In this document: positions 12,583-64,000 of the stretch, one piece after another | Numbering within the stretch: position 1 is the first letter of the stretch | How the letters are laid out: each line of letters opens with the position of its first letter | NCBI GenBank assembly: GCA_019057385.1 | Contig: JAHQJS010000003.1 | Coordinates: 32,001 to 96,000 of the forward strand | Length of the DNA: 64,000 nt | Reading direction: 5' to 3' | Source: Candidatus Borrarchaeum weybense | GTDB lineage: Archaea; Asgardarchaeota; Sifarchaeia; Borrarchaeales; Borrarchaeaceae | Notes under the pieces: generated by a model | Seen by the model: only the letters and a program-made list of their open reading frames with translations | What the model was told of the DNA's origin: nothing | Database searches by the model: none | Made by a program: the position numbers and the translations under genes

Positions 12583-12591
12583 TAACACGAG

Positions 12592-13455
12592 GTGCGTAAA
12601 AATCATATGGTAAGTGTTAACTCGCTTCATCAAAAGTGCCGAGACACTATCCCTGAAGAACTCCTCCCATATCTACCTCGCAGATGGTTTATTTTAGGAC
12701 ATGTGCTTCTTTTTCAACTTCATCCCAAGTTAGATCCATGGAAAGAAATGATTGGTAAATTTTTATTAGATGTAGATCATAGACCTGTAAGAACCGCGAT
12801 CATGCAGATTGGAACCATATCTGGCGATTTCCGAATACCTCAATACAAATTTGTTTATGGAGATCCGCACACTGAAACCATACACAAAGAAGTGGGCTGT
12901 ATTTTCAAACTTGATCCAACAAAAATAATGTTTTCTCCTGGAAACACTGAAGAACGCCAACGATTGCCGGGATTTGTCCAAGAGAATGATGTGGTCGTAG
13001 ATTTTTTTGCTTGTGTTGGACAATGGTCGATTCCTATAGGGAAACATAGCAAACCAAAAAAAGTCTATTCAATCGAACTCAACGAACTTGCTTTTTCATA
13101 TTTGTGTGAAAATATTCAACTTAACAAACTTGAGGATCAAATTATTCCTCTATTAGGAGACTGCAATGAAATAGCACCTGAAAAATGTGCTGATCATGTG
13201 ATTCTAGGCTACTTGTTTAATACAGATAAATACCTGCAAAAAGGCATCAATGCATTAAGATCAAAAAAGGGTGGATGGATACACTATCATGAGACTCTAC
13301 CTCACCATGAGTTCCCCTATTTGTCTATTAAAAAAATAAAAACAGCGAGTGAAGCACTTGGATTCGAAATAAAGGAAAAAAAAGTAAGACTCATAAAAGA
13401 TTATGCCCCGGGCATCGTTCATGGAAGAGTTTCAGCTTATCTAAAGCCTTTATAG
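12592..13455 (+). CDS. Trm5/Taw2 (TYW2)-family SAM-dependent tRNA modification enzyme
   Basis: MFSPGNTEERQR, VVDFFACVGQW, IELN, IHYH. Confidence 0.85.
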   Translation: MRKNHMVSVNSLHQKCRDTIPEELLPYLPRRWFILGHVLLFQLHPKLDPWKEMIGKFLLDVDHRPVRTAIMQIGTISGDFRIPQYKFVYGDPHTETIHKEVGCIFKLDPTKIMFSPGNTEERQRLPGFVQENDVVVDFFACVGQWSIPIGKHSKPKKVYSIELNELAFSYLCENIQLNKLEDQIIPLLGDCNEIAPEKCADHVILGYLFNTDKYLQKGINALRSKKGGWIHYHETLPHHEFPYLSIKKIKTASEALGFEIKEKKVRLIKDYAPGIVHGRVSAYLKPL

Positions 13456-13481
13456 AATGAACTCTATGTAATGTTGTTTAT

Positions 13482-14675
13482 ATGACATTACCTCTAGAAG
13501 GAATCAGAGTCCTTGATTTATCACGACTTCTACCAGGACCATTTGCTACTATGTTATTAGCTGATTTTGGAGCTGAAGTGATAAAAATTGAGGATCCGAT
13601 TCAAGGAGATTATATGCGCTGGTGGCCACCATTTTACACTAAAGATACAAACAAAGAGAGCGCAGCCTTTCTTCATCTGAACCGAAATAAGAAGTCTATC
13701 ATTCTTGATTTAAAGGATCCAGAAGGGCAGGAGATTTTCTATAGATTAGCCGAGAAATCTGACGTGGTTCTTGAGAGTTTTAGACCAGGGGTTGTGAAAA
13801 AACTTCAGATAGATTATGATACAATAAGTAGAGTTAACTCCCAGATTATATACTGCTCATTGTCAGGATATGGTCAGACCGGACCATACAGAGACCTACC
13901 AGGCCACGATGTGAATTATCTAGGAGTTGCAGGGGTTGCAAGTTTAACAGGAGAGCCAGATCAACCAAAATTAATTGGTGTGCAAGTGGCAGATATTGGT
14001 GCTGGAAGTTTAAATACGGTCTTAGCAATTTTAATGAGTATAATTGCACGTAACAAAACAGGACGAGGGCAATATATTGACGTTTCAATGCTTGATGGAG
14101 CGATGACTTGGTTAGCGTTTGCGTTTCCTCGTTTTTGGGCATCAAAGGAAATTCCCATGAGAGGTGATGACTTGCTTACGGGCGGGCGTCCGGGATATGG
14201 AATTTATAAGGCTAAAGATAATAAATTTGTGGCAGTTGGAGCATTAGAAAAAAAGTTTTGGAGAAACCTTTGCACCACAATCAAACGAGAAGATTTACTT
14301 GAGCCAGCTGATATGGAAAAAAAAGAAATTAGTGAAATCCTAAAAAAAGTCATATTGACCAAAACCAGAGATGAATGGTTTGAACTATCAAAACAGACCG
14401 ATATTTGCATTTCACCAGTCTATGAATTAGACGAGATAATGGCGGATCCACAAGTTCAAGCACGTGAAATGATTGTAGATTTTAAAGATGAGCGCTTTGG
14501 CAACATTAAGTACATAGGTATGCCATTCAAGCTTTCAGAAACGCCTGGCAATATAAGAACCAGAGCGCCAGGGTATGGGGAACACACTGAAGAGATTTTA
14601 AGATCTCTTAATTATTCAACGCAGGAAATTGAAACACTTCGCAAAAAAGAAGTGATTAGTCCTAAATATAAATAA
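13482..14675 (+). CDS. CaiB/BaiF family III CoA-transferase
   Basis: LDLSRLLPGP, NRNKKS, FRPGV, GYGQTGP, GHDVNY. Confidence 0.92.
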   Translation: MTLPLEGIRVLDLSRLLPGPFATMLLADFGAEVIKIEDPIQGDYMRWWPPFYTKDTNKESAAFLHLNRNKKSIILDLKDPEGQEIFYRLAEKSDVVLESFRPGVVKKLQIDYDTISRVNSQIIYCSLSGYGQTGPYRDLPGHDVNYLGVAGVASLTGEPDQPKLIGVQVADIGAGSLNTVLAILMSIIARNKTGRGQYIDVSMLDGAMTWLAFAFPRFWASKEIPMRGDDLLTGGRPGYGIYKAKDNKFVAVGALEKKFWRNLCTTIKREDLLEPADMEKKEISEILKKVILTKTRDEWFELSKQTDICISPVYELDEIMADPQVQAREMIVDFKDERFGNIKYIGMPFKLSETPGNIRTRAPGYGEHTEEILRSLNYSTQEIETLRKKEVISPKYK

Positions 14676-14751
14676 CGGAAAGTTTCGATTCAGAAATAAT
14701 CAATGCAACAAAAAATAGGTGCTAAAAAATAGTGCAGAATAACCCTACGAA

Positions 14752-16095
14752 CTAGGCGTAGAACTGCGCTTTTCTTTCATCCGCTCTGCTTTTGCCTAAA
14801 ACTTTCTCAATAGCATTTTCGAAATCTTCTACTGTAGCTAGAATTGACTCATCCTCATCTTCAGGATTTGCAATTATTCGACGAATTGCAAACATTCCTG
14901 CTTCTGTGCAAATATTTTTTATGTCTGCTCCAGATGCACCCTCACTTGAATTCATCAACCGAGTAAAATCAATTTCAGAATCTAATTTCATATTACTGGA
15001 ATGAATTTTGTAAATTGACGCCATAGCTTCCCTATCTGGCAAAGGAACCTCAATAATCCGATCAAAGCGACCAGGTCGAAGAAGCGCTGGATCTAGTATA
15101 TCTGGACGATTGGTTGCAGCGACAAGTTTAACATCCCCACGAGGATCAAATCCATCCATAGCACTTAGTAATTGCATAAGTGTCCTTTGTACTTCTCTAT
15201 CACCGCTTGTAGCGATTTCCAGTCTCTTTCCACCAATAGCGTCAAGTTCATCAATGAAAACAATACTTGGTGATTTTTCTCGTGCGAAAGTGAATATTTC
15301 ACGCACTAATCGCGCTCCTTCTCCAATATACTTCTGAACTAATTCAGATCCAATAACGCGAATAAATTTCGCTGAAGTCTCGTGGGCAACAGCACGAGCA
15401 AGTAGTGTCTTACCAGTTCCTGGTGGTCCGTAAAGGAGAAGTCCTTTCGGTGGCTCAATGCCCACTTGTTCAAAAAGTTCTGGTCTTAACATGGGTAACT
15501 CAACAATTTCACGTATTTCTTTAATTTGGTCAGAAAGTCCTCCTATATCTTGATAAGTAACCTGTGGTGATTCTTCTACTTCCATTCCACGAACCATAGG
15601 ATCCATGACAGGAGGCAAAATTTCAACTATTGACATCGAACGTTGGTTAAGAGCAACACGTGCTGAATTTGTAACCGTAGAAGGGTCAAGAGAGGGTGAA
15701 ACTTGAACCACGAAGTGAGGACCCGTAGTACTCTTCACAATAACGCGCTTATCTTGTAAGACATCAATAATGCTACCAGCTAAAAGTGGAGGTGCGCGTA
15801 ATTGCTCAAGCTCAGTGTGCAATGTTTGAAGTTCGCGTTCTAGTTTTGTCTTATCAGTTTTGAGTATTTGTTTTTCGGTCTCAAGCGTTCTAATTCTTTG
15901 CTCAAAGTGTTTCATCATTCCCGTTTTTCTATCCATTTTCGAGACTAGTTCCTCAAGTTCGCGCTCTAGTTTGATTTTATCAGCCTTAAGTATCTCTCTT
16001 TCGGTCTCTATCATACGAATTCTATTTTCAAGTGTTCTTATCACATCACTTGCAAATTCTTCTCTGTCGTTTGATGATCCTGTACCTTCGTTCAT
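14752..16095 (-). CDS. pan: Proteasome-activating nucleotidase
   Basis: Coiled coil, OB fold, GPPGTGKT, FIDELDAI, RPGRFDR, C-terminal HbYX-like FYA. Confidence 0.95.
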   Translation of the reverse strand: MNEGTGSSNDREEFASDVIRTLENRIRMIETEREILKADKIKLERELEELVSKMDRKTGMMKHFEQRIRTLETEKQILKTDKTKLERELQTLHTELEQLRAPPLLAGSIIDVLQDKRVIVKSTTGPHFVVQVSPSLDPSTVTNSARVALNQRSMSIVEILPPVMDPMVRGMEVEESPQVTYQDIGGLSDQIKEIREIVELPMLRPELFEQVGIEPPKGLLLYGPPGTGKTLLARAVAHETSAKFIRVIGSELVQKYIGEGARLVREIFTFAREKSPSIVFIDELDAIGGKRLEIATSGDREVQRTLMQLLSAMDGFDPRGDVKLVAATNRPDILDPALLRPGRFDRIIEVPLPDREAMASIYKIHSSNMKLDSEIDFTRLMNSSEGASGADIKNICTEAGMFAIRRIIANPEDEDESILATVEDFENAIEKVLGKSRADERKAQFYA

Positions 16096-17908: not shown

Positions 17909-18478
17909 TTGCCCAAAAGAAACGTAGTAAGATATTGCGAGATATGTGGAAATGTAATTGAGGGTAGAGGGATTGAAAGATTGATTGAAGGTACGAAAAT
18001 GATCGTTTGCATTAGTTGCGCGCGTTTTGGCGAAGCAACTAAAAGATCTCCTCCAGTCACTGCAGAAACTTCTGTAATCCCTGTACGAAGAAAAAGAAAA
18101 ACTACTACCCGCACACACACTCCTAAAAGCAAGAGAAAAAAAGTTACTATTCCTTCTCCAGAAAAGTTCTTCAGTCGTTATGAAATCGTAGAGGATTACT
18201 CAGCGATTATTCGAAAAGCACGTGAAAAAATGGAATTGACACAAGAAGAACTTGGACAAGAATTAAACGTAAAGGGATCTGTGATTCAAAAACTTGAGAC
18301 TGGTAAAACGAAACCCACAGATCCAAAATCCATTATAAAATTGGAGTCAATTCTGAACATCAAAATCCACAAACCTATTGAGAAAGAAGAGTATACACCC
18401 CCTAAAACGAAAGGGACAGATTTTACTACACTTGGGGAAGTTGTGAAATTTCGCAAAAAGAAGAAGGACGAAGAGTAA
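17909..18478 (+). CDS. mbf1: Archaeal MBF1
   Basis: CEICG...C-x2-C Zn ribbon, HTH IRKAREKMELTQEELG, TLGE. Confidence 0.9.
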   Translation: MPKRNVVRYCEICGNVIEGRGIERLIEGTKMIVCISCARFGEATKRSPPVTAETSVIPVRRKRKTTTRTHTPKSKRKKVTIPSPEKFFSRYEIVEDYSAIIRKAREKMELTQEELGQELNVKGSVIQKLETGKTKPTDPKSIIKLESILNIKIHKPIEKEEYTPPKTKGTDFTTLGEVVKFRKKKKDEE

Positions 18479-18497
18479 CTAGGAGAATTAGGAAAAT

Positions 18498-19361
18498 ATG
18501 GTATACGAGTCATTCGAATTGACGGATGACCTTAGAGAAGCCTTGCCAGGAAAATTCATTGAACTTTCGGATGGAATTGTCCATTATGAATTAGAAGGAT
18601 CCAGTAGAGACGTTGTTGTTCTGGTGCATGGGTTCTCATCACCGTTTTTCGTGTGGGATCAAAACTTCAAGTTTTTAGTAAAAAAAGGCTTTAAGGTATT
18701 GAGATACGATTTATTCGGTCGAGGCTATTCGGATCGCCCTAAAGTAAAGTATAACATGGATCTTTTCATCCGACAACTCTTCGAATTGGTTAATCAGCTT
18801 GGCTTAACACAACAAAAATTCAGTCTTGTTGGACTTTCAATGGGTGGTGGAATTTGCGTCGTTTTCGCTGATAAATATCCTGAATTAGTGAAAAAAGTAT
18901 CGCTGATAGATCCCATTGGATTTCCTATGGGAAGAAGTGCCTTTTCATCGGTTTTAAAGACACCAGGATTGAAAAAATTGATACTAAGGCGTCTTAATCA
19001 TGAAAAAATGATTGAGAATCAAAAAGGAGACTTCTATCGTTACGATAGGATCAATGAGTATCTGGAAAAATATGCTGAGCAAATGAGATACACTGGCTGG
19101 CTAAGAGCTATTCGATCTACTATTCTAAATCTGCCATTTGGTAATTTGAAAAAGACCTATGAAAGACTTGGAAGCAGGAAATTACCTGTGCAACTTTTTT
19201 GGGGAGAGTTCGATCAAACGATACCGTTTTCCAATAGTCAAAAGATTCGTGATGCAGTACCTGATATAAGGTTTCACCTAATCAAAGAATGCGGACACAT
19301 GCCTCACTATGTCCGCCCTAATGAGGTAAACCCGCTACTACTGAACTTTTTGCAACAGTAA
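18498..19361 (+). CDS. Alpha/beta hydrolase
   Basis: LVHG, DLFGRGYS, GLSMGG, CGHMPH. Confidence 0.9.
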   Translation: MVYESFELTDDLREALPGKFIELSDGIVHYELEGSSRDVVVLVHGFSSPFFVWDQNFKFLVKKGFKVLRYDLFGRGYSDRPKVKYNMDLFIRQLFELVNQLGLTQQKFSLVGLSMGGGICVVFADKYPELVKKVSLIDPIGFPMGRSAFSSVLKTPGLKKLILRRLNHEKMIENQKGDFYRYDRINEYLEKYAEQMRYTGWLRAIRSTILNLPFGNLKKTYERLGSRKLPVQLFWGEFDQTIPFSNSQKIRDAVPDIRFHLIKECGHMPHYVRPNEVNPLLLNFLQQ

Positions 19362-27546: not shown

Positions 27547-28800
27547 TTACCCCTCAGGCGGTTTTTTCTTCTCGTGCATTCTCTTTCCCTTGCCTTTCTT
27601 TTTCTTCTTCTTTTTCTTTTTCTTTTTTGCTTTTACTTCTTTTCTTACAGGTGGAGAGGGATATTTTTTCTCAATCTCTTCAATACGCTTCATAATTTCG
27701 ATAACTAATTCGTCTCCAATAAACTCGCCTGCGTAAGCATCTACTCTTGCTGCTATCGTTAGCTTTCCAGCTATCGCTCTTGCTATTTTACCTCGCAACC
27801 ACCACTTAGCATTGTGAATCTCAGGTTTCTGAAATAATACACCATGTTTCGGAGGTTTACTCCCAGTTTTAATGGCTCTAAATAGTGCTTTCTCCGCACC
27901 TAGGACTTGAACTGTGCTAGCGGGAAGACGTGCTAGTTCAAGAAGACCTCCTGCAATGCTAATAATTCGAGCCCCTAGTAGTGCGCCGACTATTGCAGTC
28001 ACATTTGGCGCAACTTCACGCATTGTAGTTTCAATATAGTGCTCACTTTCTTTCCTGACTTTGTATAAGTCATCTGTAATTCGTGCAAACTTAACAAGCG
28101 ATTCTAGATCTGCTTCATCCATTTCTGCTCCAATTGAGTTTTTAACATAACCCTCTATCTCTTTTGCCTTGTCTAAAGGTACGCCTGTTATTCTTTGAAT
28201 TTCCGAAACTAAAAAGCGATCGCGTGGACCCAATGCTCCTACTAATCCAACATATATTTCGTGATTTTCGACTTTATCCAATTCTGGAAAATGAAGACCA
28301 TACCATTCTCGGATTCGAGTTGAGAATAAATTTAACGTTTGATCGATATCATCTATAGCTTTAATCGCTTGTGCAACCATTTTATCTCTTCGTTCAGAGG
28401 CACGCTTTATCTTCTTTTGTGATTGCAGCAAACCTACTGATTGTAATATAAACTGGAAGTTATTGATCCCTTCTTCTTTTGCTATACTGAAGGACTGTTC
28501 ACGAAAATTTTTGAATATTGAATTTCCTTTTTCAGTTAACGTTTGAATATCAAATTGCTCCTGAATATTCCTTGCTAGTTTTTCGTCTTCAAGGACGATT
28601 TCTTGAACCTCTTTTTGCTTTAGTACACCTAGAACATCTTTTAATTCGTCAATAAGTTGTCCTGATTGAAGAAGTTCAATTTTTTCTACAATTTTCTCTG
28701 GCGTACTTGGAAAAAGCGCACGATAAATAATTTCGCTATTCTCATCGACCCCATAGATTCCTGCAACATTCTCCACAATATATGCACGTATTGATGTCAT
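27547..28800 (-). CDS. nop5: Nop5/Nop56 box C/D RNP protein
   Basis: EWYGLHFPEL, STVQVLGAEKALF, PKHG, GKIAR, Lys-rich tail. Confidence 0.95.
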   Translation of the reverse strand: MTSIRAYIVENVAGIYGVDENSEIIYRALFPSTPEKIVEKIELLQSGQLIDELKDVLGVLKQKEVQEIVLEDEKLARNIQEQFDIQTLTEKGNSIFKNFREQSFSIAKEEGINNFQFILQSVGLLQSQKKIKRASERRDKMVAQAIKAIDDIDQTLNLFSTRIREWYGLHFPELDKVENHEIYVGLVGALGPRDRFLVSEIQRITGVPLDKAKEIEGYVKNSIGAEMDEADLESLVKFARITDDLYKVRKESEHYIETTMREVAPNVTAIVGALLGARIISIAGGLLELARLPASTVQVLGAEKALFRAIKTGSKPPKHGVLFQKPEIHNAKWWLRGKIARAIAGKLTIAARVDAYAGEFIGDELVIEIMKRIEEIEKKYPSPPVRKEVKAKKKKKKKKKKKGKGKRMHEKKKPPEG

Positions 28801-29089
28801 TCAGATCCCATCTTCTATTATTAAGTTTTTAAGAACTTAATAGAATATCACGTATCTTTTGTATCTACTGGATTTTATTTCTCACGAGAAAATAAGGGTT
28901 TTTTCACCATTTTAATGTTTTTCCAAAAACTTATTTATCCTTTTAGAAAGCAATACTTGTTTATAATTCGAGAGAATAAATTATCTTATTCTAAATTATA
29001 TTTCACAATAGTGGGAGCGTAAAATATTTCTAGAAATTTGATTTCAAGAAATGTGTAGATACTCAAATGCGTTAAGAAGGAACTAATAA

Positions 29090-30445
29090 ATGATAGTCAC
29101 AGATTTGGTAAATTTAGCAAAAAAATCGGTCAAAATATTTAACGAACATGTTATTAAGGAAAACCTAGAACCACCAATGAGAGCCTATATTAGAGAATTT
29201 CCTACTAAATTTGAATTAACCGAATCAGGACACAGTTGTGGATTTTCAGGAGAAATAGTTCATAAACCGGACTGGTCTATGATAATATTTAATTTCATAG
29301 ACAAAATCAAAAAAAAGCCAGCCTTCGCACAACTTGCTCAATCAATTGCAGCAAGATATAAAAAGAACATCCAAGATCTGGCCGAAGGGTGCAATGAGTT
29401 AGCACAAGTCACTTTTTGGTTGGAGCGATTTATTCAGAAGATAATTTATAATAATTTAGATAAAGAACTTTCAGAAAATCAAATTATAGAATATGCTGTA
29501 TTGTTTAATTCTGATCTTGAATTAAATCCTTCAGAATATAATTACACTTTCTATTTAAACGGTATTTTCTTAGAATGTGAATCGGTAAAGATTAATGATA
29601 ACGTAATCATTAGAAAACCGCAAAAAGAGGATTTTGAATATACTAGAGATATTTTCTTCGATATTCCAAGACATCATCATATTAGAATTCCTTCATCAAT
29701 ACTGGAAATGAATATGATCGCTAAAGATAACAAAGAATGTAGAGCCTACGCCAATAGAATACTTAACGCATTAAGGCTATATAAACTGGGTTCAATTTAC
29801 CCTATTAATCAGATTGAAACTAGAAAGTCTATCATTTGGGGAGGTTCTCAAATAAGTTGGAATGGAAATTATACTTCCATCAAAAATTATACTGTAAATG
29901 AAACTGAACTTAAAGATTTTATTGATATTGTTATTGAAATTGAACAGAAATTGAATTTTAACAAAAAAGAAAAGAAAAATTGGGGGCTCCTTATTTCTCT
30001 TGAAAGATACAACTCTGCTCTTCTAGAATCTTTAGATATTGATCGAAAAGTAATGACTACAATTATGGGATTAGAATCTTTATTTTCTCTTGAAAAGGAT
30101 AGGGGCGAAAATGCGTATAAATTGGGCGTTAGAGTTGCGAAGTTACTCGGATTTATGAGACCGGATATTGAAGAAGTAAGAACATTGATAGAAAGTGGGT
30201 ATAAATTCAGAAATGATGTTGTTCACGGTATGTATATTAAACAAAACCAAAGAGAGAAAATGGAAAAAAACCTCCTGAAACTTCTCGACTATCTAAGAAT
30301 GTCTTTAATATTTTTTCTGATAAATCAACAACAAGGAAAAAATAAGTTAGTTGACATAATCGATAAATCACTAATAAGCGACAATTATGGCGAACAACTG
30401 AAAAGATTATTTCAAAACGGTATTATTATCTGTCCAAACATGTAG
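29090..30445 (+). CDS. ApeA/HEPN-like protein (putative RNase, defence cargo)
   Basis: C-terminal GLESLF...YKFRNDVVHG (RxxxxH); AT-rich island. Confidence 0.65.
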   Translation: MIVTDLVNLAKKSVKIFNEHVIKENLEPPMRAYIREFPTKFELTESGHSCGFSGEIVHKPDWSMIIFNFIDKIKKKPAFAQLAQSIAARYKKNIQDLAEGCNELAQVTFWLERFIQKIIYNNLDKELSENQIIEYAVLFNSDLELNPSEYNYTFYLNGIFLECESVKINDNVIIRKPQKEDFEYTRDIFFDIPRHHHIRIPSSILEMNMIAKDNKECRAYANRILNALRLYKLGSIYPINQIETRKSIIWGGSQISWNGNYTSIKNYTVNETELKDFIDIVIEIEQKLNFNKKEKKNWGLLISLERYNSALLESLDIDRKVMTTIMGLESLFSLEKDRGENAYKLGVRVAKLLGFMRPDIEEVRTLIESGYKFRNDVVHGMYIKQNQREKMEKNLLKLLDYLRMSLIFFLINQQQGKNKLVDIIDKSLISDNYGEQLKRLFQNGIIICPNM

Positions 30446-30550
30446 AAATCTCTAATAGATGAGTTTGAGTTATCTTAAATTTCAAACGACTCAGTTGAGC
30501 AAAAATAGATAATAATTAGTATAGATGTTTAAAATAAGTTAGTGGTATGA

Positions 30551-31612
30551 ATGGTATCTAAGATTAATCACTTTACCGATGCAGGAGAACTGTTTAGAAG
30601 ATTGGATACAATAGAAAGATTCCCAAATGTGCCTATTAAAACGGTATTGTTCATCTATGATTTCAGGTACAAATTATTAGACATCTTAGATAGAATAACA
30701 CCCCAGGAATATCAAAAATCGTCTTATAAAATTAAATTTGAAAACGATGATGTTGTCTTGTTAGATGTGAAGATCGTAAAAGATTTAGATATAATTTCAA
30801 GTGATAGGAGAAAAGTATTTCTTATAATAGATAAGAATAAGCCATTTTGTATTTTGATTACAAATTCTGAGGGAAATTATTTCAAAAAAGTATTATCATT
30901 TTTCAATAAACATTATCCGCTATTATCAAGAATTTTTTTACGCTCAAATGAAATAAAAGACTTATTAAACTATCTAGAGGAAAAAGAAGAAGCGAAGTTG
31001 ACCGTTTTAAGTTATGTTGTTAAAAGATACTATGTAAGGCCAGAGACAAGAATTGCCTATGAGAAAATCAGTTTTAGAGAAGTCTTTGATAAGGCATCAG
31101 ATGATTTTCTTTGGGTAGATAGTATTTATTTAGCAATTGAAAAAAGATCCAAGAGTAAAATTAGGATAAATAGACGAGGAGTCATATCATATTATAGGAA
31201 TTTAGATTATTCAAATATTCATTTGATTCTTATCTCTCAAATTCTTATTAAATACTCAAAAATATATACAAGTATCCTAATGGAAAGATCGAGAAGTCTT
31301 GAAAATTTAGAACCCCGACCAGTAAGGTTTTTTATAAACGAAGACGTCTTCAATTCATCAGAAGATATCGATAGGTTCTTAGAAGCTTTGCATAAATATT
31401 TGCTTAATTGGGGATATTCAACATTATTTAAAGAAAGAAACTACCTTTATCTCATACTTCACGATTATCAAACAGGTTCAAGTTACGATATTTTGATCAG
31501 TTCTCCTTATGAAATATTTGTTACTCCACAAACTCAAGTTACGAGCATTTCTTTTGGCGCTCTAGTCAACTTTCTTGTTGATAATTATGATGGAGTTGTT
31601 GAAAATGTCTAA
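30551..31612 (+). CDS. Hypothetical protein, coupled to the next gene
   Basis: 353-aa ORF in island. Confidence 0.7.
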   Translation: MVSKINHFTDAGELFRRLDTIERFPNVPIKTVLFIYDFRYKLLDILDRITPQEYQKSSYKIKFENDDVVLLDVKIVKDLDIISSDRRKVFLIIDKNKPFCILITNSEGNYFKKVLSFFNKHYPLLSRIFLRSNEIKDLLNYLEEKEEAKLTVLSYVVKRYYVRPETRIAYEKISFREVFDKASDDFLWVDSIYLAIEKRSKSKIRINRRGVISYYRNLDYSNIHLILISQILIKYSKIYTSILMERSRSLENLEPRPVRFFINEDVFNSSEDIDRFLEALHKYLLNWGYSTLFKERNYLYLILHDYQTGSSYDILISSPYEIFVTPQTQVTSISFGALVNFLVDNYDGVVENV

Positions 31613-32705
31613 AGATAATAATGAAGAATTAATGAGATTTAGAAAAATAGATATCAGCAACTATATCAAAGCGCTAAAATCTCTGATATGTTTAAGGAAA
31701 ATGATTATAAACGAGTTATCAGGTGAATTCTATTTTGGTAGTAAGTTAAATTACAAAAATAAACAAGGAGATCCTCAAACACCTGACTTTATTACAAAAC
31801 TAAGCAATACTGCATGGATAGGAGAGCTTAAAAGATCGCTTCCTGAACCTAAAAATTTTACTTCTGAAGAAGAATATGTCGAGAAAATTGTAGAAAAACT
31901 TATCGAACAGTTGCAAAAATATGATGAATCTTTTAAGGAATTAGATTCTTATCAGCATGATATTATACTAATGACTCCATCATTAGCAACAGATGCAATA
32001 GGCGTTTTGAAGTTTAAGTATCTAGAAAAAGAGAATGTCAATAATCTGTTTAAACACAATTTTGCACTTCTTCTTTATACACTTGAATCAGGAGCAAATA
32101 ATACCGAGTTCATATACATTAAATTGGATTATGGAACTATTACTGATAAGAAGGCTACAGATATTTTAAAAGTTGGTTACAAAAAGGTTTTAGGAGAATT
32201 AAAAGAAGATTTAGCGAAATTTAAAATATATGAAGAAAGTAAACAAACACCTTTTGAATATGTAATGGTTCTGCTTTGGACACAGATATTCCCTGAGATA
32301 ATCAAAAAAAGTCGTGTAGAGAAGATAATCGAATGGAAAGACAGGAAGGAACACATATTCGAAGTAAAATTAGATGAGTTAATTGAATATCTACATAAAA
32401 TGTATACATTGCCATCTTTGAGTGCAACTGACAAAAAGCAATTTACAACCAAGATAATACAGAAAGCCATGACTATGTTTTCAAAGGTTAAAATTAAAAG
32501 TGAAAGAACTAGAAAACTCGAACCTTTGGTTACGTATGGTGAAAAAGACGGTTCTATGGTATTTAGAGTGGTTTATAAAAAACTTCGGGAGAAGAAAGAA
32601 TTGGACTTCATTCTTAAGTCGATTTATTTGGAACAAGGTGAAATTGAAGACAAGGAAACTCAAAGAGAATTAATTAATTATCCACGATTAGATACATGGT
32701 TTTAA
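31605..32705 (+). CDS. Putative PD-(D/E)xK nuclease-domain protein
   Basis: TPDF...WIGELKRS...QLQKYD; start taken at ATG 31605. Confidence 0.55.
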   Translation: MSKDNNEELMRFRKIDISNYIKALKSLICLRKMIINELSGEFYFGSKLNYKNKQGDPQTPDFITKLSNTAWIGELKRSLPEPKNFTSEEEYVEKIVEKLIEQLQKYDESFKELDSYQHDIILMTPSLATDAIGVLKFKYLEKENVNNLFKHNFALLLYTLESGANNTEFIYIKLDYGTITDKKATDILKVGYKKVLGELKEDLAKFKIYEESKQTPFEYVMVLLWTQIFPEIIKKSRVEKIIEWKDRKEHIFEVKLDELIEYLHKMYTLPSLSATDKKQFTTKIIQKAMTMFSKVKIKSERTRKLEPLVTYGEKDGSMVFRVVYKKLREKKELDFILKSIYLEQGEIEDKETQRELINYPRLDTWF

Positions 32706-32936
32706 AATTTTAAATAAAAAGTAGTTATAAATTGATTCGCTGTTCTGTTAGTTATAGCGAGAGAGTTCTTTTTCCATAATTTTCTATACTAAAAACCGCT
32801 TAGAACAATTTTTTCAAAGAAAGGAAGTCAACTATACACCCATTTTATTAGAGGAGATGGGAAAACCTAATTTTTTTGATGGGTTTATAAATCTAGTTAT
32901 AGAATGTATAAATGAGATTATATCGAGGTTGGAAAT

Positions 32937-33758
32937 ATGAGAAAAACAAAAAAACTGATGATGATTCATGCCTATACTCCCATTGCAAAACCGATCAACA
33001 CCTCTGTTCAAAAAAATTCAACCATGCTGTTGTTAGGTCAAATTCCCTACGAAAACGGGTCAAAAATATTCACTACTAAGCTTTATTATATCAAAGGATT
33101 ACGTGGAATGCTAAGACATGCCTGTATGAGCCTTGCTCAGGATTGTAGTATCGAGGTGTGTCATACCAGCGAAAAAACTGAACTCAAAGACGGTACAAAG
33201 GTGACTCCCTCAGGGTTTCATCCACTGGGTGAATGTGAACCTCCATGCATCCTCAAAAGAATTTTTGGTACATTTCGCGAGGAGTCCTCAATATCTGTCT
33301 TGTCAGATCCTATAGCTTCTATTAAGCACAAAGAATTTACCACTGAAGTTCCTGTGCAAAAGGTACATATCGCTAGCGAATATAGAATAGCGAAATCGTT
33401 CACGGGTATACCTATTCAGGACTTCAAGGAATCGTATTTCTCAGGGTATTTTAGTTTCTGTATTGATGTAACTGAATTAACTGACTATGAAATCAAGTTT
33501 CTCATGGAATCTCTACTCTACATTGAAACACTTGGTGCTGGTAAGCGTTCGGGTTATGGACGTATCAAAATTATTAGTTTCGAGTTTCAGAAGGTTGAAA
33601 TTACCAGAAAGATCGACCGCGAAAATGGAAGTTATAAAGTTGTTGAGAATGAGTCGATAACGCCCTTAGAACTCGATGATATCGAGAGTTGGAGGGATTC
33701 AATACCTTCATGGACACAAGGCACGCAAGATGGTATGCTACCTGTTCTTAACGAGTAG
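32937..33758 (+). CDS. cas7: Divergent Cas7-like RAMP (locus A)
   Basis: IKGLRGMLRH, Cys cluster CH...CEPPC, IFG, G-rich loop LGAGKRSGYGRI; close paralog of 61174..61983. Confidence 0.8.
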   Translation: MRKTKKLMMIHAYTPIAKPINTSVQKNSTMLLLGQIPYENGSKIFTTKLYYIKGLRGMLRHACMSLAQDCSIEVCHTSEKTELKDGTKVTPSGFHPLGECEPPCILKRIFGTFREESSISVLSDPIASIKHKEFTTEVPVQKVHIASEYRIAKSFTGIPIQDFKESYFSGYFSFCIDVTELTDYEIKFLMESLLYIETLGAGKRSGYGRIKIISFEFQKVEITRKIDRENGSYKVVENESITPLELDDIESWRDSIPSWTQGTQDGMLPVLNE

Positions 33759-33932
33759 CACGTTCTTGTGCATGAGACTGCTCATCTATAAAGGTCTGAC
33801 GCCTTTGATGAGGAGGGATGACTCGCAGGGGACGATAAATGTCGTAAACATGTTTATGAGTTTACTAAGTCTATCGACTAACCTTGCAAAGCCTCTCTTA
33901 AGCGATGGCAAGTTAAACGCTTGTCATCGCTT
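33731..33932 (+). ncRNA. Putative guide RNA 1: scaffold 33731-33843, guide ~33844-33889, hairpin 33900-33932
   Basis: Scaffold shared with 59913-60028 and 61025-61139; 33865-33889 matches pyrD 34041-34065 (24/25). Confidence 0.7.
33900..33932 (+). terminator. Hairpin after guide 1
   Basis: AAGCGATGGCAAG/CTTGTCATCGCTT stem (one G-U), followed by T-rich tract. Confidence 0.55.
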
Positions 33933-34037
33933 CCATTTTATCCTATTGTTTCTTCTATACTTCTTCAGAAAAAGTTAAGAAGTCTAATATAAAAGTAAGA
34001 GTTAAGATAAACGAATGAAAGTGAAGTTTAGATTTTT

Positions 34038-34982
34038 ATGCTAACTCTATCGACTAACCTTGCAACATTACAACTTAAGAATCCTGTTATGTTAGCTGCT
34101 GGAGTTCTCGGTATTTCGGGACCAGTACTTAAACGGGTAGCGAATGCCGGTGCGGGTGCGGTTGTCACAAAATCTATCGGTCCTGAGCCCAGAGAAGGTT
34201 ACAATAATCCAACAGTCGTTCCTTTAAATGAATTTAGTTGTTTGAATGCTGTTGGGCTTTCAAACCCTGGGTATTTAGAGTTTTCCAAAGAAATAATTTT
34301 GGCAAAACAAGAAAACGTTCCAATAATTGTTAGTATATTTGGCGCAGATATTGATGAATTTTGTACAATTGCGAAGAAAATGGAAAAGAGTGGTGCTGAT
34401 GCACTTGAACTTAACCTTTCATGTCCTCATGGAGGAAAATATGGTGCATCTATCGGACAGGATCCACAATTATCAGGTGAAATTGTATACGCCGTAAAAA
34501 ATACCGTGCAGATCCCTGTTTTTATTAAACTCACACCAAACGTGACTGATCTGATTCCTATTGCAAAAAGTGCTGAAAATAATGGTGCCGATGCTATTAC
34601 TGCAATCAACACAGTACGCGCTATGTGCATAGACATTGAAACTGGGCAGCCCTTATTATCAAACGCGTTTGGAGGGCTTTCTGGGCCTGCAATAAAACCA
34701 ATCGCAATCAAACATATTTATGATCTCTATAAAGAAGTAGGGATCCCTCTTATCGGTGTGGGTGGTATTGTTTCTTGGGAAGATGCAATAGAATTCTTTC
34801 TTGCTGGAGCTACTGCAATTCAAGTAGGGACTGGGCTTCTGCGGACATCATTCCTAGACATGTTTAATGAATTAACCGAAGGAATTCTAAGTTATCTCAG
34901 AAGAAAAGGCTATACTCGTTTAGAAGAAATCATTGGACTTACTCATAGACTTAAATCTTATAGGGGATCTTTACACGAGTAA
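34038..34982 (+). CDS. pyrD: Dihydroorotate dehydrogenase B catalytic subunit
   Basis: KNPVMLAAG, LNAVGLSNPG, ELNLSCPH, KLTPN, GGLSGPAIKP. Confidence 0.95.
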   Translation: MLTLSTNLATLQLKNPVMLAAGVLGISGPVLKRVANAGAGAVVTKSIGPEPREGYNNPTVVPLNEFSCLNAVGLSNPGYLEFSKEIILAKQENVPIIVSIFGADIDEFCTIAKKMEKSGADALELNLSCPHGGKYGASIGQDPQLSGEIVYAVKNTVQIPVFIKLTPNVTDLIPIAKSAENNGADAITAINTVRAMCIDIETGQPLLSNAFGGLSGPAIKPIAIKHIYDLYKEVGIPLIGVGGIVSWEDAIEFFLAGATAIQVGTGLLRTSFLDMFNELTEGILSYLRRKGYTRLEEIIGLTHRLKSYRGSLHE

Positions 34983-54551: not shown

Positions 54552-54619
54552 CTCTTCCTCATTATTTATCTAGTCTAAAATGCTATAAAAAGTCAATCCG
54601 CTATCCCATGAGTAAAGAG

Positions 54620-54796
54620 TGGTGCGGGGGATGGGATTTTCGTTCTGGCGGTTTATCGCCAAGGAATTCGAACCCACGCAGGCGATCGCGAAACCTAAGG
54701 CATCTAATGCTTCTCTACGCCACAGGATCCTGAGTCCTGCTCCTTTGGCCAAGTTCCCGTTACTCTCCATCGAGAGGAGACCTCGGACACCCCCGC
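54620..54796 (-). tRNA. tRNA-Leu(CAG) with encoded CCA and three introns (~54781-54754 D-loop, ~54714-54684 variable arm, ~54666-54637 T-loop)
   Basis: Removing the inserts gives GCGGGGGTGTCCGAGCTTGGCCAAAGGAGCAGGACTCAGGATCCTGTGGCGTAGGCCTGCGTGGGTTCGAATCCCATCCCCCGCACCA, a typical archaeal tRNA-Leu. Confidence 0.88.
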
Positions 54797-58872: not shown

Positions 58873-58995
58873 TATGAATTAAATCTTATCGTTAGTTCTT
58901 TCATCAATATAAGATAACTTAGTTTGATTCTTACCGTTCCTTTCATAATAGACATCTATTACAGCGAATAGTGTCTATCCACCCACGATAAGAAC

Positions 58996-59266
58996 ATGAG
59001 TGGAGGGCCCGCTAGGACGGTTAAGCGGGATACCTACCGCCATATAGGGTGCAGGCCTTGCGTGAACGAAACGATGATTTATTATCAGCGTTCCCGCAGA
59101 ATCGACGGCGTACGGGAGTGCTGGGCTGAAGTCCGTGAAGTGGTCCCGGGGCGAATGCTTAAACCTCCGGGTGCCTCATCTTACCATCAATTCTCACTTA
59201 TATACTGGAGGACCTGCTTTATAAACACCACGCCTCACGCGTTCACTGTGGAACCCCTTGCCCGCG
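58996..59266. ncRNA. Unidentified GC-rich structured intergenic RNA candidate
   Basis: GC-rich stretch in AT-rich DNA with several hairpins. Confidence 0.35.
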
Positions 59267-59304
59267 AAAGAATCGTCTATATTTGTCTATAAAATAAATA
59301 ACTG

Positions 59305-59595
59305 TTAATCACCCTCTTGTAACTTTTGTTTGATCACAAAAACTCGTATTTTTTCCTCTGCAATTATAAGTGTATCATTGATGGATTTAATTACAGAATG
59401 AGGAATTAAAATTGTTCCTTTCTCATCGCGCGGAAATTTTTCAATATCTGGATGTTTAGTAGGCTTCACACACACCGCTAATAGGTGGCCATCTCGCGAA
59501 TTAATTATGAAATCAACTACCTTTCCCATAGCAGAACCTTTTTCATCAGTTACAGAAATACCAACTAAGTCCCGGATATCGATGATTTCCGACAT
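59305..59595 (-). CDS. PRC-barrel domain protein
   Basis: DLVGISVTDEKGSAMGKVVDF...ILIPHSVIKSINDTLII. Confidence 0.85.
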   Translation of the reverse strand: MSEIIDIRDLVGISVTDEKGSAMGKVVDFIINSRDGHLLAVCVKPTKHPDIEKFPRDEKGTILIPHSVIKSINDTLIIAEEKIRVFVIKQKLQEGD

Positions 59596-59846
59596 TTTTC
59601 ATCCCATCAGACCTTGCATGAGTCGGTCTATGTTAAATCAATATTTTTTGCTATTAATATCATCTGCTTCGAGTTATAAATTAGTCAAGTCATATTGACA
59701 GAACCTTTTCAAAAAGCAAAAATGAGAGTAGAATTGGAAAATTCAAAATTCGATTCAATAAATCTCGAATGAAAAGTGAAAACTAAAGAACGCTGTGCAA
59801 TTATCTTCGTTTAAATCATACAAAAGTCTATCATAATGCAGGAAAT

Positions 59847-60028
59847 AGGAGGGAATAATCCCTCCTTATCTAATATTTACAGGAATGCCGATTAAGTCGC
59901 GGATATTTTTTTGACATTTTTCGTCCCCTGCGAGTCATTCATTCCCAACAAGTGAGGCGTCGGACCTCTAATTTGGTTCAGTCTCATGCACAAGAACGTG
60001 TCCCCCGTGATATACGAAGAACATTCCG
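59847..60028 (-). ncRNA. Putative guide RNA 3: scaffold 60028-59913, guide ~59912-59875, hairpin 59866-59847
   Basis: Scaffold copy; 59906-59877 matches PRC-barrel gene 59579-59550 (25/30); perfect AGGAGGGA/TCCCTCCT stem. Confidence 0.7.
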
Positions 60029-60061
60029 CCTTGTAACTCATTAAACCTCTTGAAAAGAGTC

Positions 60062-60091: not shown

Positions 60092-60919
60092 TCATTCTTG
60101 CCATGTATACAAACCACTCTTCAAGTCATCAAGATAGAGATTTACCATAAGGAGTAGGTGATTTTTTAAAGATGAAAAGCCAAATTTTAGCGCTTCGCTG
60201 ATCTTATCAAACGCTTGACATTTTCGAATATAAGTATAAAGAGCATAAGGGGAATATTGACGCCTTTCTATCTCTATTTTTAATACATCGAAATCAATTT
60301 TTTCTAATTCTGTCACACGATAACGAGAGGACGCTGACCATCTAAATTTTCGAGAAATCATTGCAGATAGTCGGTCATAATGTTGTAATAAATAAAGCCA
60401 AAGAAAATCTTTTTCATCTATATCATAATTGTGATGATTCTTTGCAAGTTTGAAGACATCTTCGTCAGCTATATCAACATCAGTATAAATTTTACTTGGA
60501 TGTCGATCAGTGCCTACAAAATCATGCAGGAGCATTGCTATAATTAACTTTTCCTGCATATCTGAGAGTTTAGGAAGTTTCTTACGAATCTTAATTCTTC
60601 TTGTAGTATAGAGAGGCTTTTTCTTGAGTTTTTTGAGAGAAGTCCAAAAGATTCGTCCCATCCCCTCACATGTATAACTTCCAACACTATCAATAGCAAG
60701 TGCTTCTTCAAGTTTATGTTCTGAAACGATAAACTCAATATTACCAAACCACGCCCTAAAGGTCATTGGCGCACGTCTTTGTCCTACCGTTAATTTTCCG
60801 AATACCCTGGGACGACCTTTTATGGTCATCGCTCCAACGTCGGTAACTCCAAAATGTCTACGCTTTGAAACAATAGGAGTTTTTGTATAACCAATTAATT
60901 TAAAGTATTTCTGTGGCAT
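60092..60919 (-). CDS. Cas5-like RAMP fused to permuted HD nuclease domain
   Basis: N-terminal YFKLIGYTKTP and G-loop GSYTCEGMGRI; LLHD...NHH...YDRLSA...SLKNH. Confidence 0.7.
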   Translation of the reverse strand: MPQKYFKLIGYTKTPIVSKRRHFGVTDVGAMTIKGRPRVFGKLTVGQRRAPMTFRAWFGNIEFIVSEHKLEEALAIDSVGSYTCEGMGRIFWTSLKKLKKKPLYTTRRIKIRKKLPKLSDMQEKLIIAMLLHDFVGTDRHPSKIYTDVDIADEDVFKLAKNHHNYDIDEKDFLWLYLLQHYDRLSAMISRKFRWSASSRYRVTELEKIDFDVLKIEIERRQYSPYALYTYIRKCQAFDKISEALKFGFSSLKNHLLLMVNLYLDDLKSGLYTWQE

Positions 60920-60944
60920 TTTATTCCCTCTTATAAGATTTTAC

Positions 60945-61139
60945 CTCCTCTTTGAACAAAAGAGAGGAGATATAAACCTTGCCAAAGTAAACACGTTTGC
61001 AACTGTTGTTTGTAAAGTGGGTATGACATTTTTCGTTCCTTGCGAGTCATCCGTCCCCAACAATTGAGGCGTCGGACCTCTAAGCTGGTTCAGTCTCATG
61101 CACAAGAACGTATCACTCACATCAGTAAGTGATAAACCG
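60945..61139 (-). ncRNA. Putative guide RNA 2: scaffold 61139-61025, guide ~61024-60970, hairpin 60969-60945
   Basis: Scaffold copy; 61021-60970 aligns to cas7 promoter 62071-62019 (7 mismatches, 1 gap). Confidence 0.72.
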
Positions 61140-61173
61140 TAATGAGATGAGAAAAAAAGTTGAAATAAATGTG

Positions 61174-61983
61174 TCACACAGCCACCTTCTCATCCTGTTT
61201 ACTCATAGTATTCAAAGAAGTTCTCCAATCCTCGATTTTACTTAGAGAAAGCGGAATTTCAGTGGTTTCTTCTATAATTTTATAGTTTCCTTCGCTATCC
61301 TCTTCGACTCTTCGAAAAGTCTCAACCTTCTGAAGAGCAATATTAAGGATTTTGACGCAACCATATCCACTTGACCGTCCTGCCCCAAGAATTTCTACGT
61401 AGAGCATTGCTTCTATAAGAAACTTGATTTCAACATCAGTTAGATTAGTGACATCAATTTGAAAGGAAAAAAATCCACTGAAATAACTCTCACGAAAGTC
61501 TTGGATGGGAGTACCATCATAGGCAAGCGCTATTCTGTTTTCACTAGAGATGTGGACATTTTGAACTGGCACTATTGTTATAAAATCTTTGTGTTTAATC
61601 GAGGCAATAGGGTCTGCTGCGACAACAATAGAGGACTTTTCACGGAAGGTGCCAAAGATTGTTCTGAGAATACAGGGAGGATCGCATGTACCAAGCGCAT
61701 GAAATCCTTGCGGAAGAACACTTTTACCATCTTTAAGTTCAGTTTTTTCAGAACTATGACATACTTCGATGTTGCAGTCTTGAGCAAGTTCCATACAGGC
61801 ATGTCTTAACATCCCTCGGATACCTTTAATGTAATAAAATTTAGTATTGAACGTTTTTTCTCCATTCACATAAGGAAATTTCCCTAACAAGAGCATGCTA
61901 GAATTTTTCTGAATCGAGGCATTGATAGGCTTTGCTATGGGTGTAAAGGCGTGAACAACTATCTGGTTTTTGATTTTTCTCAT
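61174..61983 (-). CDS. cas7: Divergent Cas7-like RAMP (locus B)
   Basis: IKGIRGMLRH, CH...CDPPC, IFG, LGAGRSSGYGCV. Confidence 0.8.
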   Translation of the reverse strand: MRKIKNQIVVHAFTPIAKPINASIQKNSSMLLLGKFPYVNGEKTFNTKFYYIKGIRGMLRHACMELAQDCNIEVCHSSEKTELKDGKSVLPQGFHALGTCDPPCILRTIFGTFREKSSIVVAADPIASIKHKDFITIVPVQNVHISSENRIALAYDGTPIQDFRESYFSGFFSFQIDVTNLTDVEIKFLIEAMLYVEILGAGRSSGYGCVKILNIALQKVETFRRVEEDSEGNYKIIEETTEIPLSLSKIEDWRTSLNTMSKQDEKVAV

Positions 61984-62017: not shown

Positions 62018-62090
62018 TATATAAACCTTGCTCAAAATAAACACTTTTTCTACTCTTGTTAGTAAAATGGGGTTTAAAATGACTTCCTTT
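62018..62090 (-). promoter_or_regulatory. cas7 promoter (TATA TTTATATA 62025-62018); homologous to 32821-32890; matched by guide 2
   Basis: AAGGAAGTCA...CCCATTTTA...GGTTTATA...GAGGTTGGAAA-n-ATG upstream of both cas7 copies. Confidence 0.65.
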
Positions 62091-62326: not shown

Positions 62327-64000
62327 TTAGGGCAATAGATCTTTTACTGTAACTGGAGGACCCTTTTTCTGTGGTTTATAGATGCCTTCTAAATGTTGGA
62401 ATCTTTCAAACATTAAGTGGAGAGTTTCCTTATCTGGAGCGTAAATAAAGGGGATGAATCGCTTATTTTCTAGCAAAAAATCCTTGAGTTGTACTGCACA
62501 CTGCCTTAAAGCCTCCATTACTGTCATCTTCTGTTCAAGATAGTATATTTCTTGATTGAGTATATCATCAACTAGTCTCTCAACTTTGTAGTGTCCATTC
62601 CATGTTAGGTGATAGAATTGTTCGTGTTCAAGCGTTTTACGCTTCTTGAAATCAGCTTTTGTAAATTCACCATACAAACATGCTAAAATTAGGGTGAGCC
62701 TGAACAAGGGAATAAACATTTCTCGAAAATCAAAGATAGTGCCTAGAAAGGAGCGTTGGGTTTTTTTAAAGTGCAGTATCAGTTCATCCGGTACCCAAGA
62801 AAATCCTACTTCAGCGAGTGCTTTTCGACAGTAAAGGTTAAGATGACGATAAACAGCATTGAGTGCAGCACTAAAGGGTGTACGTGCTTTTACTTCTCCT
62901 AAAAGGACAACGGTGGAAATATAGCGTTCTAGGGTACGACTAATGATCTCAAAGTAGGTTCCTCTTAGCAAACGTTTAGGGATTTCCCAGGCAACTCCTT
63001 CAACTAAGCCTTCAAACCCACGGAGGTTGTCAATATTACCCCTCCAATAGAGAAAAGTATATGCTACTCGATCCAGCAATTTAGATAAGAGCTCTTGAGC
63101 ATTTTCAGCAGATAACAACCCCTCTTTTTCAACTTGGAGTACTGAATTGGCTAGACCTATATCTTTACTTATTGTCAGAAGCCATGCTAGCAATTTGCCT
63201 CGTTCTGTTCCTCTGATTCGCTGAGCGGCATATTTCAGTTCGTCGGCTACCTGTTGTTTCTTTGGAGTTAGTTTATTTTGTGCAAAGAAACTACCTTTTG
63301 GTGTATTTGCATCAATGAGTTTCTTGCTATATTTCTTACGAATGTATTGCGATATATCGCCACCTTCAATGATGATATTACGGATAGCACCGACTAAATA
63401 CCGTTTTGTTTCTCTTCCGTCTTTTAGTGTATGAACAAATCGTTTTTTTCTAATATCGAGCCTTTCATTACACTTGACACGGATATTTCGTTTTGGTCTT
63501 CTGATATAGACCTTTGTCTTTTTAACTCTCTGAACATAATTCCCGGGCTTACCTATAAGCAGTTCTAAATTTGTTTGCAATACATCACGATAACCCGGTT
63601 TTATTACAAGTTCACCATTAACGGTCAAATGATAACTGGAATTGCATTCAGGACAGACTGTATATTCCATATATGAGGACGGTAATTCCACAATGCCACG
63701 AGGTTTACAGTTTAAACATGTAATGCTGCCATTTGTTTCTTGCAATATTCTTATTTTACGTTTTTTTAACCTTTGAACATTTTCGTGATGTTCGCATGCA
63801 CTCTTCCTTGGTGTGGCGTAAGGATTTCTTGCTCGTTTTCCTACTTGTTTGTTTAATTTGCAGTTTAACACACAAACATGTGCATGTTTCGATCTTCGAC
63901 GGTCCTTTATAGGGTTTATCTGAATGAACTTACAAGATCCACAGGTGAGCCGAAGATGTTCAGGAATACTTGCGTTCACATCAGCTACATAGATTTTGGG
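62327..64000 (-). CDS. cas1: Large divergent Cas1 with N-terminal Zn-finger-like motifs (5' end outside window)
   Basis: LRGFEG, PFSAALNAVYRHL, ALAEVGF...ILH, IFDFREMF follow the Cas1 E/H/D-E catalytic motif order; several CxxC pairs; frame open to window edge. Confidence 0.75.
   Translation of the reverse strand, partial: PKIYVADVNASIPEHLRLTCGSCKFIQINPIKDRRRSKHAHVCVLNCKLNKQVGKRARNPYATPRKSACEHHENVQRLKKRKIRILQETNGSITCLNCKPRGIVELPSSYMEYTVCPECNSSYHLTVNGELVIKPGYRDVLQTNLELLIGKPGNYVQRVKKTKVYIRRPKRNIRVKCNERLDIRKKRFVHTLKDGRETKRYLVGAIRNIIIEGGDISQYIRKKYSKKLIDANTPKGSFFAQNKLTPKKQQVADELKYAAQRIRGTERGKLLAWLLTISKDIGLANSVLQVEKEGLLSAENAQELLSKLLDRVAYTFLYWRGNIDNLRGFEGLVEGVAWEIPKRLLRGTYFEIISRTLERYISTVVLLGEVKARTPFSAALNAVYRHLNLYCRKALAEVGFSWVPDELILHFKKTQRSFLGTIFDFREMFIPLFRLTLILACLYGEFTKADFKKRKTLEHEQFYHLTWNGHYKVERLVDDILNQEIYYLEQKMTVMEALRQCAVQLKDFLLENKRFIPFIYAPDKETLHLMFERFQHLEGIYKPQKKGPPVTVKDLLP

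Follow-up and report, generated by a model that had tools for sequence, protein, structure and literature searches.

Comparison with related genomes shows that a 64,000-nucleotide stretch of Candidatus Borrarchaeum weybense (Archaea; Asgardarchaeota; Sifarchaeia; contig JAHQJS010000003.1, positions 32,001 to 96,000; hereafter the window, or C3:32001-96000 of the genome under study, G000) contains insertions that end at the very sequence matched by a guide RNA encoded within them. One of these insertions, locus A, carries an operon led by a gene for a helicase-Cas1 fusion protein, followed by cas7, a gene that we call RAMP-HD and two copies of a scaffold RNA. We consider it on balance probable that this module is a self-contained, array-less type III derivative resembling the ARAMP (Asgard RAMP) cassettes, that it is mobile in a site-specific manner and that its own guide RNA chooses the insertion site. 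Guide-directed homing is well supported by the genome comparisons. Cas1 is a candidate integrase by inference, a role made less certain by an insertion that lacks Cas1. A sequence-only reading of the window had proposed a zinc-finger-extended Cas1 as a possible RNA-guided integrase of a casposon-like element, and had placed two loci just upstream of the gene that their guide matches. This adjacency was borne out at both window loci, the neighbouring genes being one for a PRC-barrel protein at locus A and the start of pyrD at the insertion 28791-34040. In total, four insertions have empty counterparts in same-genus genomes (G001-G004), these two in the window and two, loci B and C, elsewhere in the genome. 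Positions are those of the window unless stated otherwise, and sense denotes the strand on which the module genes are read.

At locus A, the genomes G004, G002 and G001 carry the empty site, in which the PRC-barrel gene directly adjoins DNA that is 6.9 kb distant from it in the genome under study; in G004:C28, positions 18003-18275 and then 18268-18897 correspond to L008 5314-5586 joined to 12504-13121. The terminal scaffold RNA of the module (59902..60042, minus strand) is followed by a homing guide of 31 nt (59873..59903, minus strand; ATATCCGCGACTTAATCGGCATTCCTGTAAA), directly after which comes a hairpin. This guide matches the PRC-barrel allele of G004 at 30 of 31 positions (empty site in the sense orientation: ...ATTATTG ATATCCGAGACTTAATCGGCATTCCTGTAAA...), and the sole mismatch falls at guide position 12, a flipped position, Cas7 backbones flipping out every sixth guide base. 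The protospacer beside the element (59555..59585, minus strand) covers codons ~6-16 of the PRC-barrel gene (59305-59595) and matches the guide at only 25 of 31 positions, so that the guide agrees more closely with the empty G004 allele than with the adjacent copy; the occupied protospacer shows 6 mismatches in 32 positions, against ~6% in the flank. The insertion junction (~59586-59594) lies directly 5' of the protospacer, and homology to G004 ends within ~8 nt upstream of it. The insertion falls inside the PRC-barrel reading frame, for which the element supplies a new start (MSEII... replacing MIKIESSSII...). This start is contained in an element-borne segment, X (59587..59872, minus strand), made up of the hairpin, a new promoter region, the new PRC-barrel start codon and, at its end, a remnant of the scaffold 3' end (GGGATGAAAAATGTC, ~15-30 nt, 59586-59625, minus strand); the remnant is directly upstream of the PRC-barrel coding sequence and the ATG lies inside it. 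In contigs of four sediment runs, no explicit joint spanning the element was seen; a contig of run X3 has 111 unlike letters before it matches exactly, starting at the right junction (L008 12504), and possibly comes from the same population as G004 or G002.

The same arrangement recurs at unrelated host genes. Locus B is a 10.6-kb insertion that ends exactly before GGTGGTTTGATTGCGCC..., a sequence matched by the tail of the element's scaffold; here the guide lies 1.7 kb inside the element and shares no more than 38 nt with the flank. Locus C is a 10.5-kb insertion that splits ftsY at about codon 38. Its guide matches 35 nt starting at the junction, the far end retains the native 5' part of ftsY (95% identical to G004), and the element carries a diverged replacement of the first 38 ftsY codons (68% identical). 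By bringing its own promoter and start, or its own 5' part, the element thus leaves the target gene intact. An independent metagenome contig, L063, bears the element at the identical ftsY site, and its guide departs from the locus C guide at three bases, as does its target from the locus C target at the same three (GCGAATGAAAT versus GCAGCTGAAAT); the sister contig carries an ESCRT-II EAP30 gene. The second insertion of the window (28791..34040, plus strand) lies between nop5 and pyrD and is absent from G004, G001 and G003. It comprises a Cas7 paralogue (32937-33758), a scaffold (33717-33854) and a guide (33852-33889) whose target is the start of pyrD (34041-34065), together with three uncharacterized genes (451, 353 and 376 aa) for which MJECL33/MJECL32 and PD-(D/E)XK-like proteins are leads only. 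Its guide agrees with the pyrD start of G004 in 36 of 38 nt, and homology to G004 picks up again 13 nt into the protospacer.

Taken together, the insertion end and the scaffold-proximal end of a 31-38-nt match in the host are 0-13 nt apart at no fewer than five independent sites, the junction falling 0 to ~8 nt before the scaffold-proximal end of the protospacer at three loci and 13 nt inside it at two. Such a near-constant distance between target and junction had been anticipated in the sequence-only reading for a homing element, as had the existence of empty sites and the lack of a separate integrase or transposase bounding the element; indeed, Pfam scans of the genes in the insertions found no other enzyme of either kind in the inserted DNA. 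Locus D and the G004:C46 module follow the guide-to-junction rule less cleanly. The four guide tails of the G004:C9 module have no match within its 18-kb locus. Out to 2.5 kb, none turned up for the terminal guides of loci E and F or for several orphan scaffolds; in G004, locus F survives as a deletion remnant, and of locus E the scaffold side alone is left. Two simpler origins of the matches were considered. That the guide represents leftover host codons beside the scaffold was rejected, the sequence occurring once in the sister genomes and twice here, and a classical att-site crossover between guide and target was likewise rejected, both copies being on the same side of the element. The position of the locus B copy 1.7 kb inside the element and the hairpin after every guide imply instead that the guide is element-borne and not residual flank. 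The coincidence of the junction with the guide target at several unrelated host genes is most simply read as site choice directed by the guide.

The RNA gene that carries these guides consists of a 5' hairpin, a conserved core of ~110 nt, a variable tail of 31-38 nt and a hairpin. It was recognized as a 91-nt repeat, part of a ~140-nt unit, present twice in the module, after cas7 and after the RAMP-HD gene. The terminal copy is recovered by covariance model R1 with 149.8 bits and is supported by alignment and covariation, and the internal copy (61014..61153, minus strand) by the repeat, the alignment and the covariance model. The latter fills a 78-aa open reading frame (ORF) between cas7 and RAMP-HD (60941-61177), which was therefore rejected as a gene. 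The genome holds ~24 scaffold copies, and 20 aligned copies display a strongly conserved core and a 5' hairpin whose pairing is kept through eight compensatory pairs, which argues that the structured RNA is real. A strong, non-homologous hairpin (z -4 to -6) comes directly after every homing guide, so that each unit is a discrete RNA gene. Rfam and ARAGORN returned nothing in the 18-kb locus, the scaffold RNA corresponding to no Rfam family, and a search with model R1 around the helicase-Cas1 genes of G028 and G035, which are more distant, detected no scaffold. Scaffold-guide units also occur in short tandem runs, three in G004:C9 (L064 2395-3026) and two in locus B (L010 7439-7850), and at locus B the 5' hairpin types seem to have been exchanged between units, which would fit the insertion of one unit into a scaffold.

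The internal scaffold carries a guide of a different kind. In all six modules (6/6), the ~50 nt that follow it (~60964-61013, minus strand, in the window) match the region upstream of the module's own cas7 (62019..62071, minus strand), and there is no cross-match between the internal guides of the three subfamilies. The mismatches fall on one 6-nt register (30 of 41; binomial p 2.6e-16), also when a single locus per subfamily is counted (14 of 20; p 7e-8). Given the flipping of every sixth base by Cas7, this register shows that the tails are read on a Cas7 filament and that their pairing is under selection. Autoregulation of the cas7 promoter is the most likely function of the internal guide.

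The helicase-Cas1 gene, on the minus strand, runs out of the window, which holds only its 3' part (62327..64000, residues 771-1327, an ORF without a start inside the window). The full ORF (G000:C3:94327-98310, equivalent to an end at 66310 of the window) codes for 1327 aa (protein P0003) counted from the first ATG, the frame being open up to C3:98337. The protein starts with a Hel308-like helicase, continues with two zinc ribbons and ends in a Cas1 domain of ~380 residues. Residues 25-347 form a DEAD/Helicase_C core closest to Hel308-type DNA helicases according to Pfam and NCBIfam, with the motifs of the Hel308/Ski2-like superfamily 2 intact (GKT 46-51, DELH 144, QLSGRAAR 339). The Cys-rich basic region noticed in the sequence-only reading exists (63644..63943, minus strand; residues 790-889) and has two CxxC...CxxC motifs of zinc ribbons, whereas the zinc-finger-extended Cas1 of ~550 aa proposed there turned out to be the tail, cut by the window, of this larger helicase fusion.

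The Cas1 core postulated in that reading is real and its active-site residues are intact, as judged from sequence conservation and a predicted fold. The Pfam match covers residues ~950-1227 (62630..63463, minus strand): PF01867 scores 24.2 bits against the C-terminal part alone (cut-off 22.3; profile positions 9-265 of 283) and 28-39 bits against three related paralogues, and a Pfam scan of the whole 1327-aa protein gave no Cas1 match, the domain surfacing only when the C-terminal part is searched alone. An AlphaFold model of the Cas1 part (predicted local distance difference test, pLDDT, 81.6) has the two-domain Cas1 fold, with an N-terminal beta and a C-terminal helical domain, and its top 50 Foldseek matches in the PDB are all Cas1 or casposase (4n06, E 1.5e-11; casposase 6opm, 8.4e-11). 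Searched by sequence against PDB chains, either singly or as a 5-row profile, the C-terminal part retrieved nothing useful. In an alignment of 24 homologues (17-80% identity), E1100, R1125, R1129, N1151 and H1180 are invariant and D1194 nearly so; the catalytic codons are at 63011-63013 (E1100), 62771-62773 (H1180) and 62729-62731 (D1194), on the minus strand. The ratio of non-synonymous to synonymous substitution rates (dN/dS) among three Cas1 paralogues is 0.13-0.20, which indicates purifying selection on Cas1. The family is small: an exhaustive phmmer search of 1.84 billion representatives yielded only 27 relatives, many of them helicase-Cas1 fusions of 1130-2360 aa, and a search with a narrow alignment found no relative of the locus in GTDB species genomes. 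In agreement with the sequence-only reading, the module has neither cas2 nor a short-repeat array; the sole canonical cas1-cas2 pair of the genome lies elsewhere (C4:153602-154842), with its single cas2 at C4:154630-154842.

The two other proteins of the module point to a type III origin. The first is a Cas7-like RAMP of 269 aa (61174..61983, minus strand; Csm3-like), identified by Pfam RAMPs (28.3 bits) and PADLOC (Csm3, 2.3e-8). RAMP-HD (275 aa; 60092..60919, minus strand) combines, according to a structural model and sequence motifs, an N-terminal RAMP domain (Cas5/Cas6-like RRM) with a C-terminal Cas10-like HD domain. In the model, the RRM domain resembles Cas6, Csf, Csm4 and Cmr3 (Z 6-7.6), and the best matches of the C-terminal domain are the HD domains of Csm1/Cas10 (Z 8.2 and 7.2, the former with Csm1 residues 2-221); all these scores are middling, and they are backed by an invariant HD motif (H..HD..H..HH..D..H, with H132, D133, H140, H162, H163 and H254 invariant). 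A search recovered 84 RAMP-HD homologues, the few named ones being from Asgard archaea (Borrarchaeum, Promethearchaeota, Heimdallarchaeota and Thorarchaeota). Six modules of identical gene order occur in this one genome, in addition to the Cas1-less one at 28791-34040. At locus D, the helicase-Cas1 gene (G000:C4:420158-421444) is split into ORFs of 567 and 781 aa, and L062, the ENA contig with P0004, encodes at 10001-15451 a helicase-Cas1, Cas7 and one scaffold without RAMP-HD, with a TatD DNase gene downstream of this relative of the module.

The surroundings of locus A also contain repeats. Sequences of ~320-380 bp at 58934-59313 and, beyond the window, at L008 13118-13436 are absent at these sites in G004; they belong to a set of dozens of copies across the genus (74-98% identity) that resemble miniature inverted-repeat transposable elements. 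The first contains a 98-aa ORF (58996-59292), and variants of the second in sediment contigs have a replaced core of 36-38 nt. A 192-nt inverted repeat (88% identity; 54606-54796 and G000:C3:98852-99042), whose arms bracket the region, was rejected as the element end, both of its arms being present in the element-free G004; each arm overlaps a small ORF (88 and 81 aa).

A mechanism that would unite these components can be proposed for a module whose own guide chooses the insertion site. The complex of Cas7 and RAMP-HD with the homing RNA would bind the empty allele, and the fused helicase-Cas1 would be brought to the scaffold-proximal edge of the R-loop and join the element DNA there, the HD domain and the helicase supplying nicking and unwinding. 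The occupied allele would then escape re-targeting, the sequence 5' of its protospacer being replaced and the protospacer itself mutated. The most novel view, which we regard as possible and not yet probable, is that of a new class of RNA-guided mobile element in Asgard archaea, with recognition of a conserved host gene by a minimal, type III-derived Cas7/RAMP-HD complex, insertion by helicase-Cas1 at the edge of an R-loop and, possibly, installation of further units by Cas1 for self-retargeting. The extra tandem scaffold-guide units (three units in locus B, two terminal units in locus F) leave room for the alternative raised in the sequence-only reading, that Cas1 may act as a writer of new guides.

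Several observations weigh against integration by Cas1, or against recent mobility. At locus A, the two insertion ends form no inverted repeat with each other, and no motif is common to the ends of A, B and C. Target duplication is inconsistent, amounting at locus A to at most 8 bp (ATCATYGA, with one mismatch), being absent at locus B and not definable at locus C; known Cas1 and casposase integrations leave a duplication of fixed length. The helicase-side end of the insertions is variable, with 0.2 to 3.4 kb of unrelated cargo that consists of TPR/LRR proteins and uncharacterized genes, among which a language model gave leads, and leads only, to defence-like genes. At the pyrD locus, ~150 bp of host intergenic DNA were replaced and not merely interrupted, as were the first codons of both neighbouring genes. 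Moreover, the 28791-34040 element keeps the guide-to-junction geometry with Cas7 and the RNA and without Cas1 and RAMP-HD, which implies that Cas1 is dispensable in cis and, if it acts at all, may do so in trans. The module copies are old (synonymous divergence, dS, 0.3-1.0), with no recent jump seen within this genome. Finally, the sequence alone is compatible both with a guide that preceded the insertion and with one copied from the flank after it.

The absence of inverted ends, the inconsistent duplication, the variable far end, the replacement at pyrD and the Cas1-less element fit a cut-and-copy type of homing at least as well as integration of the casposase type. In a homing process driven by a nuclease, in the style of TnpB or homing endonucleases, the guide complex with RAMP-HD would cut the empty allele at the protospacer, and host repair would copy the element from an occupied allele or from transferred DNA; Cas1 would be no integrator and would have another task, such as the putative installation of scaffold-guide units. 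The Cas10-type HD domain with all its motif residues, the unusual divergence of occupied protospacers, as at locus A, and the additional tandem units, including the three in a row of G004:C9, would also suit this explanation. However, repair needs homology on both sides of the cut, and the related modules A, B and C are found at three unrelated sites with different flanks; likewise, the displaced 5' part of ftsY kept at the far end marks locus C as an insertion and not as an allelic replacement. We hold nuclease-driven homing to be rather unlikely. Still less credible is that the module is a fixed, non-mobile ARAMP defence or regulatory cassette riding on islands moved otherwise, its guides matching neighbours through regulation or local flank duplication: one guide is clearly regulatory (that for the module's own cas7 promoter), some cargo is defence-like (MJECL32/33-like and PD-(D/E)XK-like, leads only), ARAMP is taken as a defence system in the literature (PMC8730458, PMC12669027) and the scaffold 3'-end remnant right before the PRC-barrel start at locus A suggests local duplication, but regulation of neighbours does not predict an insertion end so close to the protospacer edge at five or more independent sites, the guide RNA is in the sense of the target mRNA and could thus pair only with DNA, Pfam scans of the inserted DNA revealed no other mobility gene and the locus A guide prefers the empty G004 allele to its own neighbour.

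A site-specifically mobile, guide-directed module of this kind differs from the known unions of CRISPR components and mobile DNA. By its defining features, it is neither a casposon nor a Tn7-like CRISPR-associated transposon (CAST). It shares with casposons a Cas1-family protein whose gene lies on DNA inserted by comparison with sister genomes, yet it lacks PolB (no polymerase family emerged from Pfam scans covering the genes inside and next to the four insertions), terminal inverted repeats and a consistent target duplication such as the 14-15-bp one of casposons, which themselves have no RNA guide and no RAMPs; the casposon-like label of the sequence-only reading has thus to be abandoned. 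With the CASTs (I-F3, I-B and V-K) it has in common a nuclease-poor CRISPR effector and a dedicated guide near one element end that matches a conserved host site just outside. By contrast, it has no TnsA, TnsB, TnsC or TniQ (Pfam, inserted DNA) and no Tn7 ends, its candidate integrase is a helicase-fused Cas1, its junction is at the scaffold-proximal protospacer edge (0-13 nt) instead of ~50 bp beyond the far end, and it repairs the target gene with a 5' part of its own. The OMEGA systems (TnpB or IscB with omega RNA) also have a long structured scaffold followed by a 3' guide that matches DNA beside the element end, which suggests homing to empty sites; in our module, however, the guide is a separate copy within the element that ends in a hairpin and does not read through into the flank, and the effector is a multi-subunit Cas7/RAMP-HD without a RuvC nuclease. 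A natural autoregulatory guide is represented by the long tracrRNA of Cas9 (Workman 2021, as cited in PMC8730458). As in Cas-regulating RNAs such as CreR and in the long tracrRNA, the internal guide pairs imperfectly with the promoter of its own effector gene, but it does so from a long scaffold in an array-less system, over a match of ~40-50 nt with mismatches only at flipped positions.

Among known systems, the module comes closest to ARAMP, reportedly described by Makarova, Wolf, Shmakov, Liu, Li and Koonin in CRISPR J in 2020. It fits ARAMP as summarized in two reviews (PMC8730458, PMC12669027), which present a system with a distinct Cas1 as 'array-less' and its mechanism as 'enigmatic'. 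According to these summaries, both share the Asgard host, the lack of an array, the type III derivation, strongly diverged Cas7 and Cas5-like RAMPs, a nuclease and a distinct Cas1. The two reviews name no guide RNA, whereas our module has a ~140-nt scaffold RNA, guide tails, an autoregulatory guide and junctions at the guide target. A full-text literature search, in which the 2020 description was represented by reviews, returned no paper describing guide RNAs or guide-directed insertion for ARAMP-type systems.

To our knowledge, what has been known of ARAMP cassettes since 2020 amounts to no more than gene lists, with neither an array nor a mechanism attached. Our analysis endows them with a guide RNA, a pairing signature of the Cas7 type and a testable function in site-specific homing. 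Even if Cas1 plays another role, an autoregulatory guide and a guide-to-junction rule that holds at several independent sites are new for a CRISPR derivative. If helicase-Cas1 is the integrase, the module would represent, after the Tn7-like CASTs, a second and independent case in which CRISPR targeting has been joined to DNA insertion, reached this time via the adaptation enzyme. It would then also provide a compact programmable insertion system with a defined junction, and would bear on how Cas1 has moved between mobile elements and immunity.

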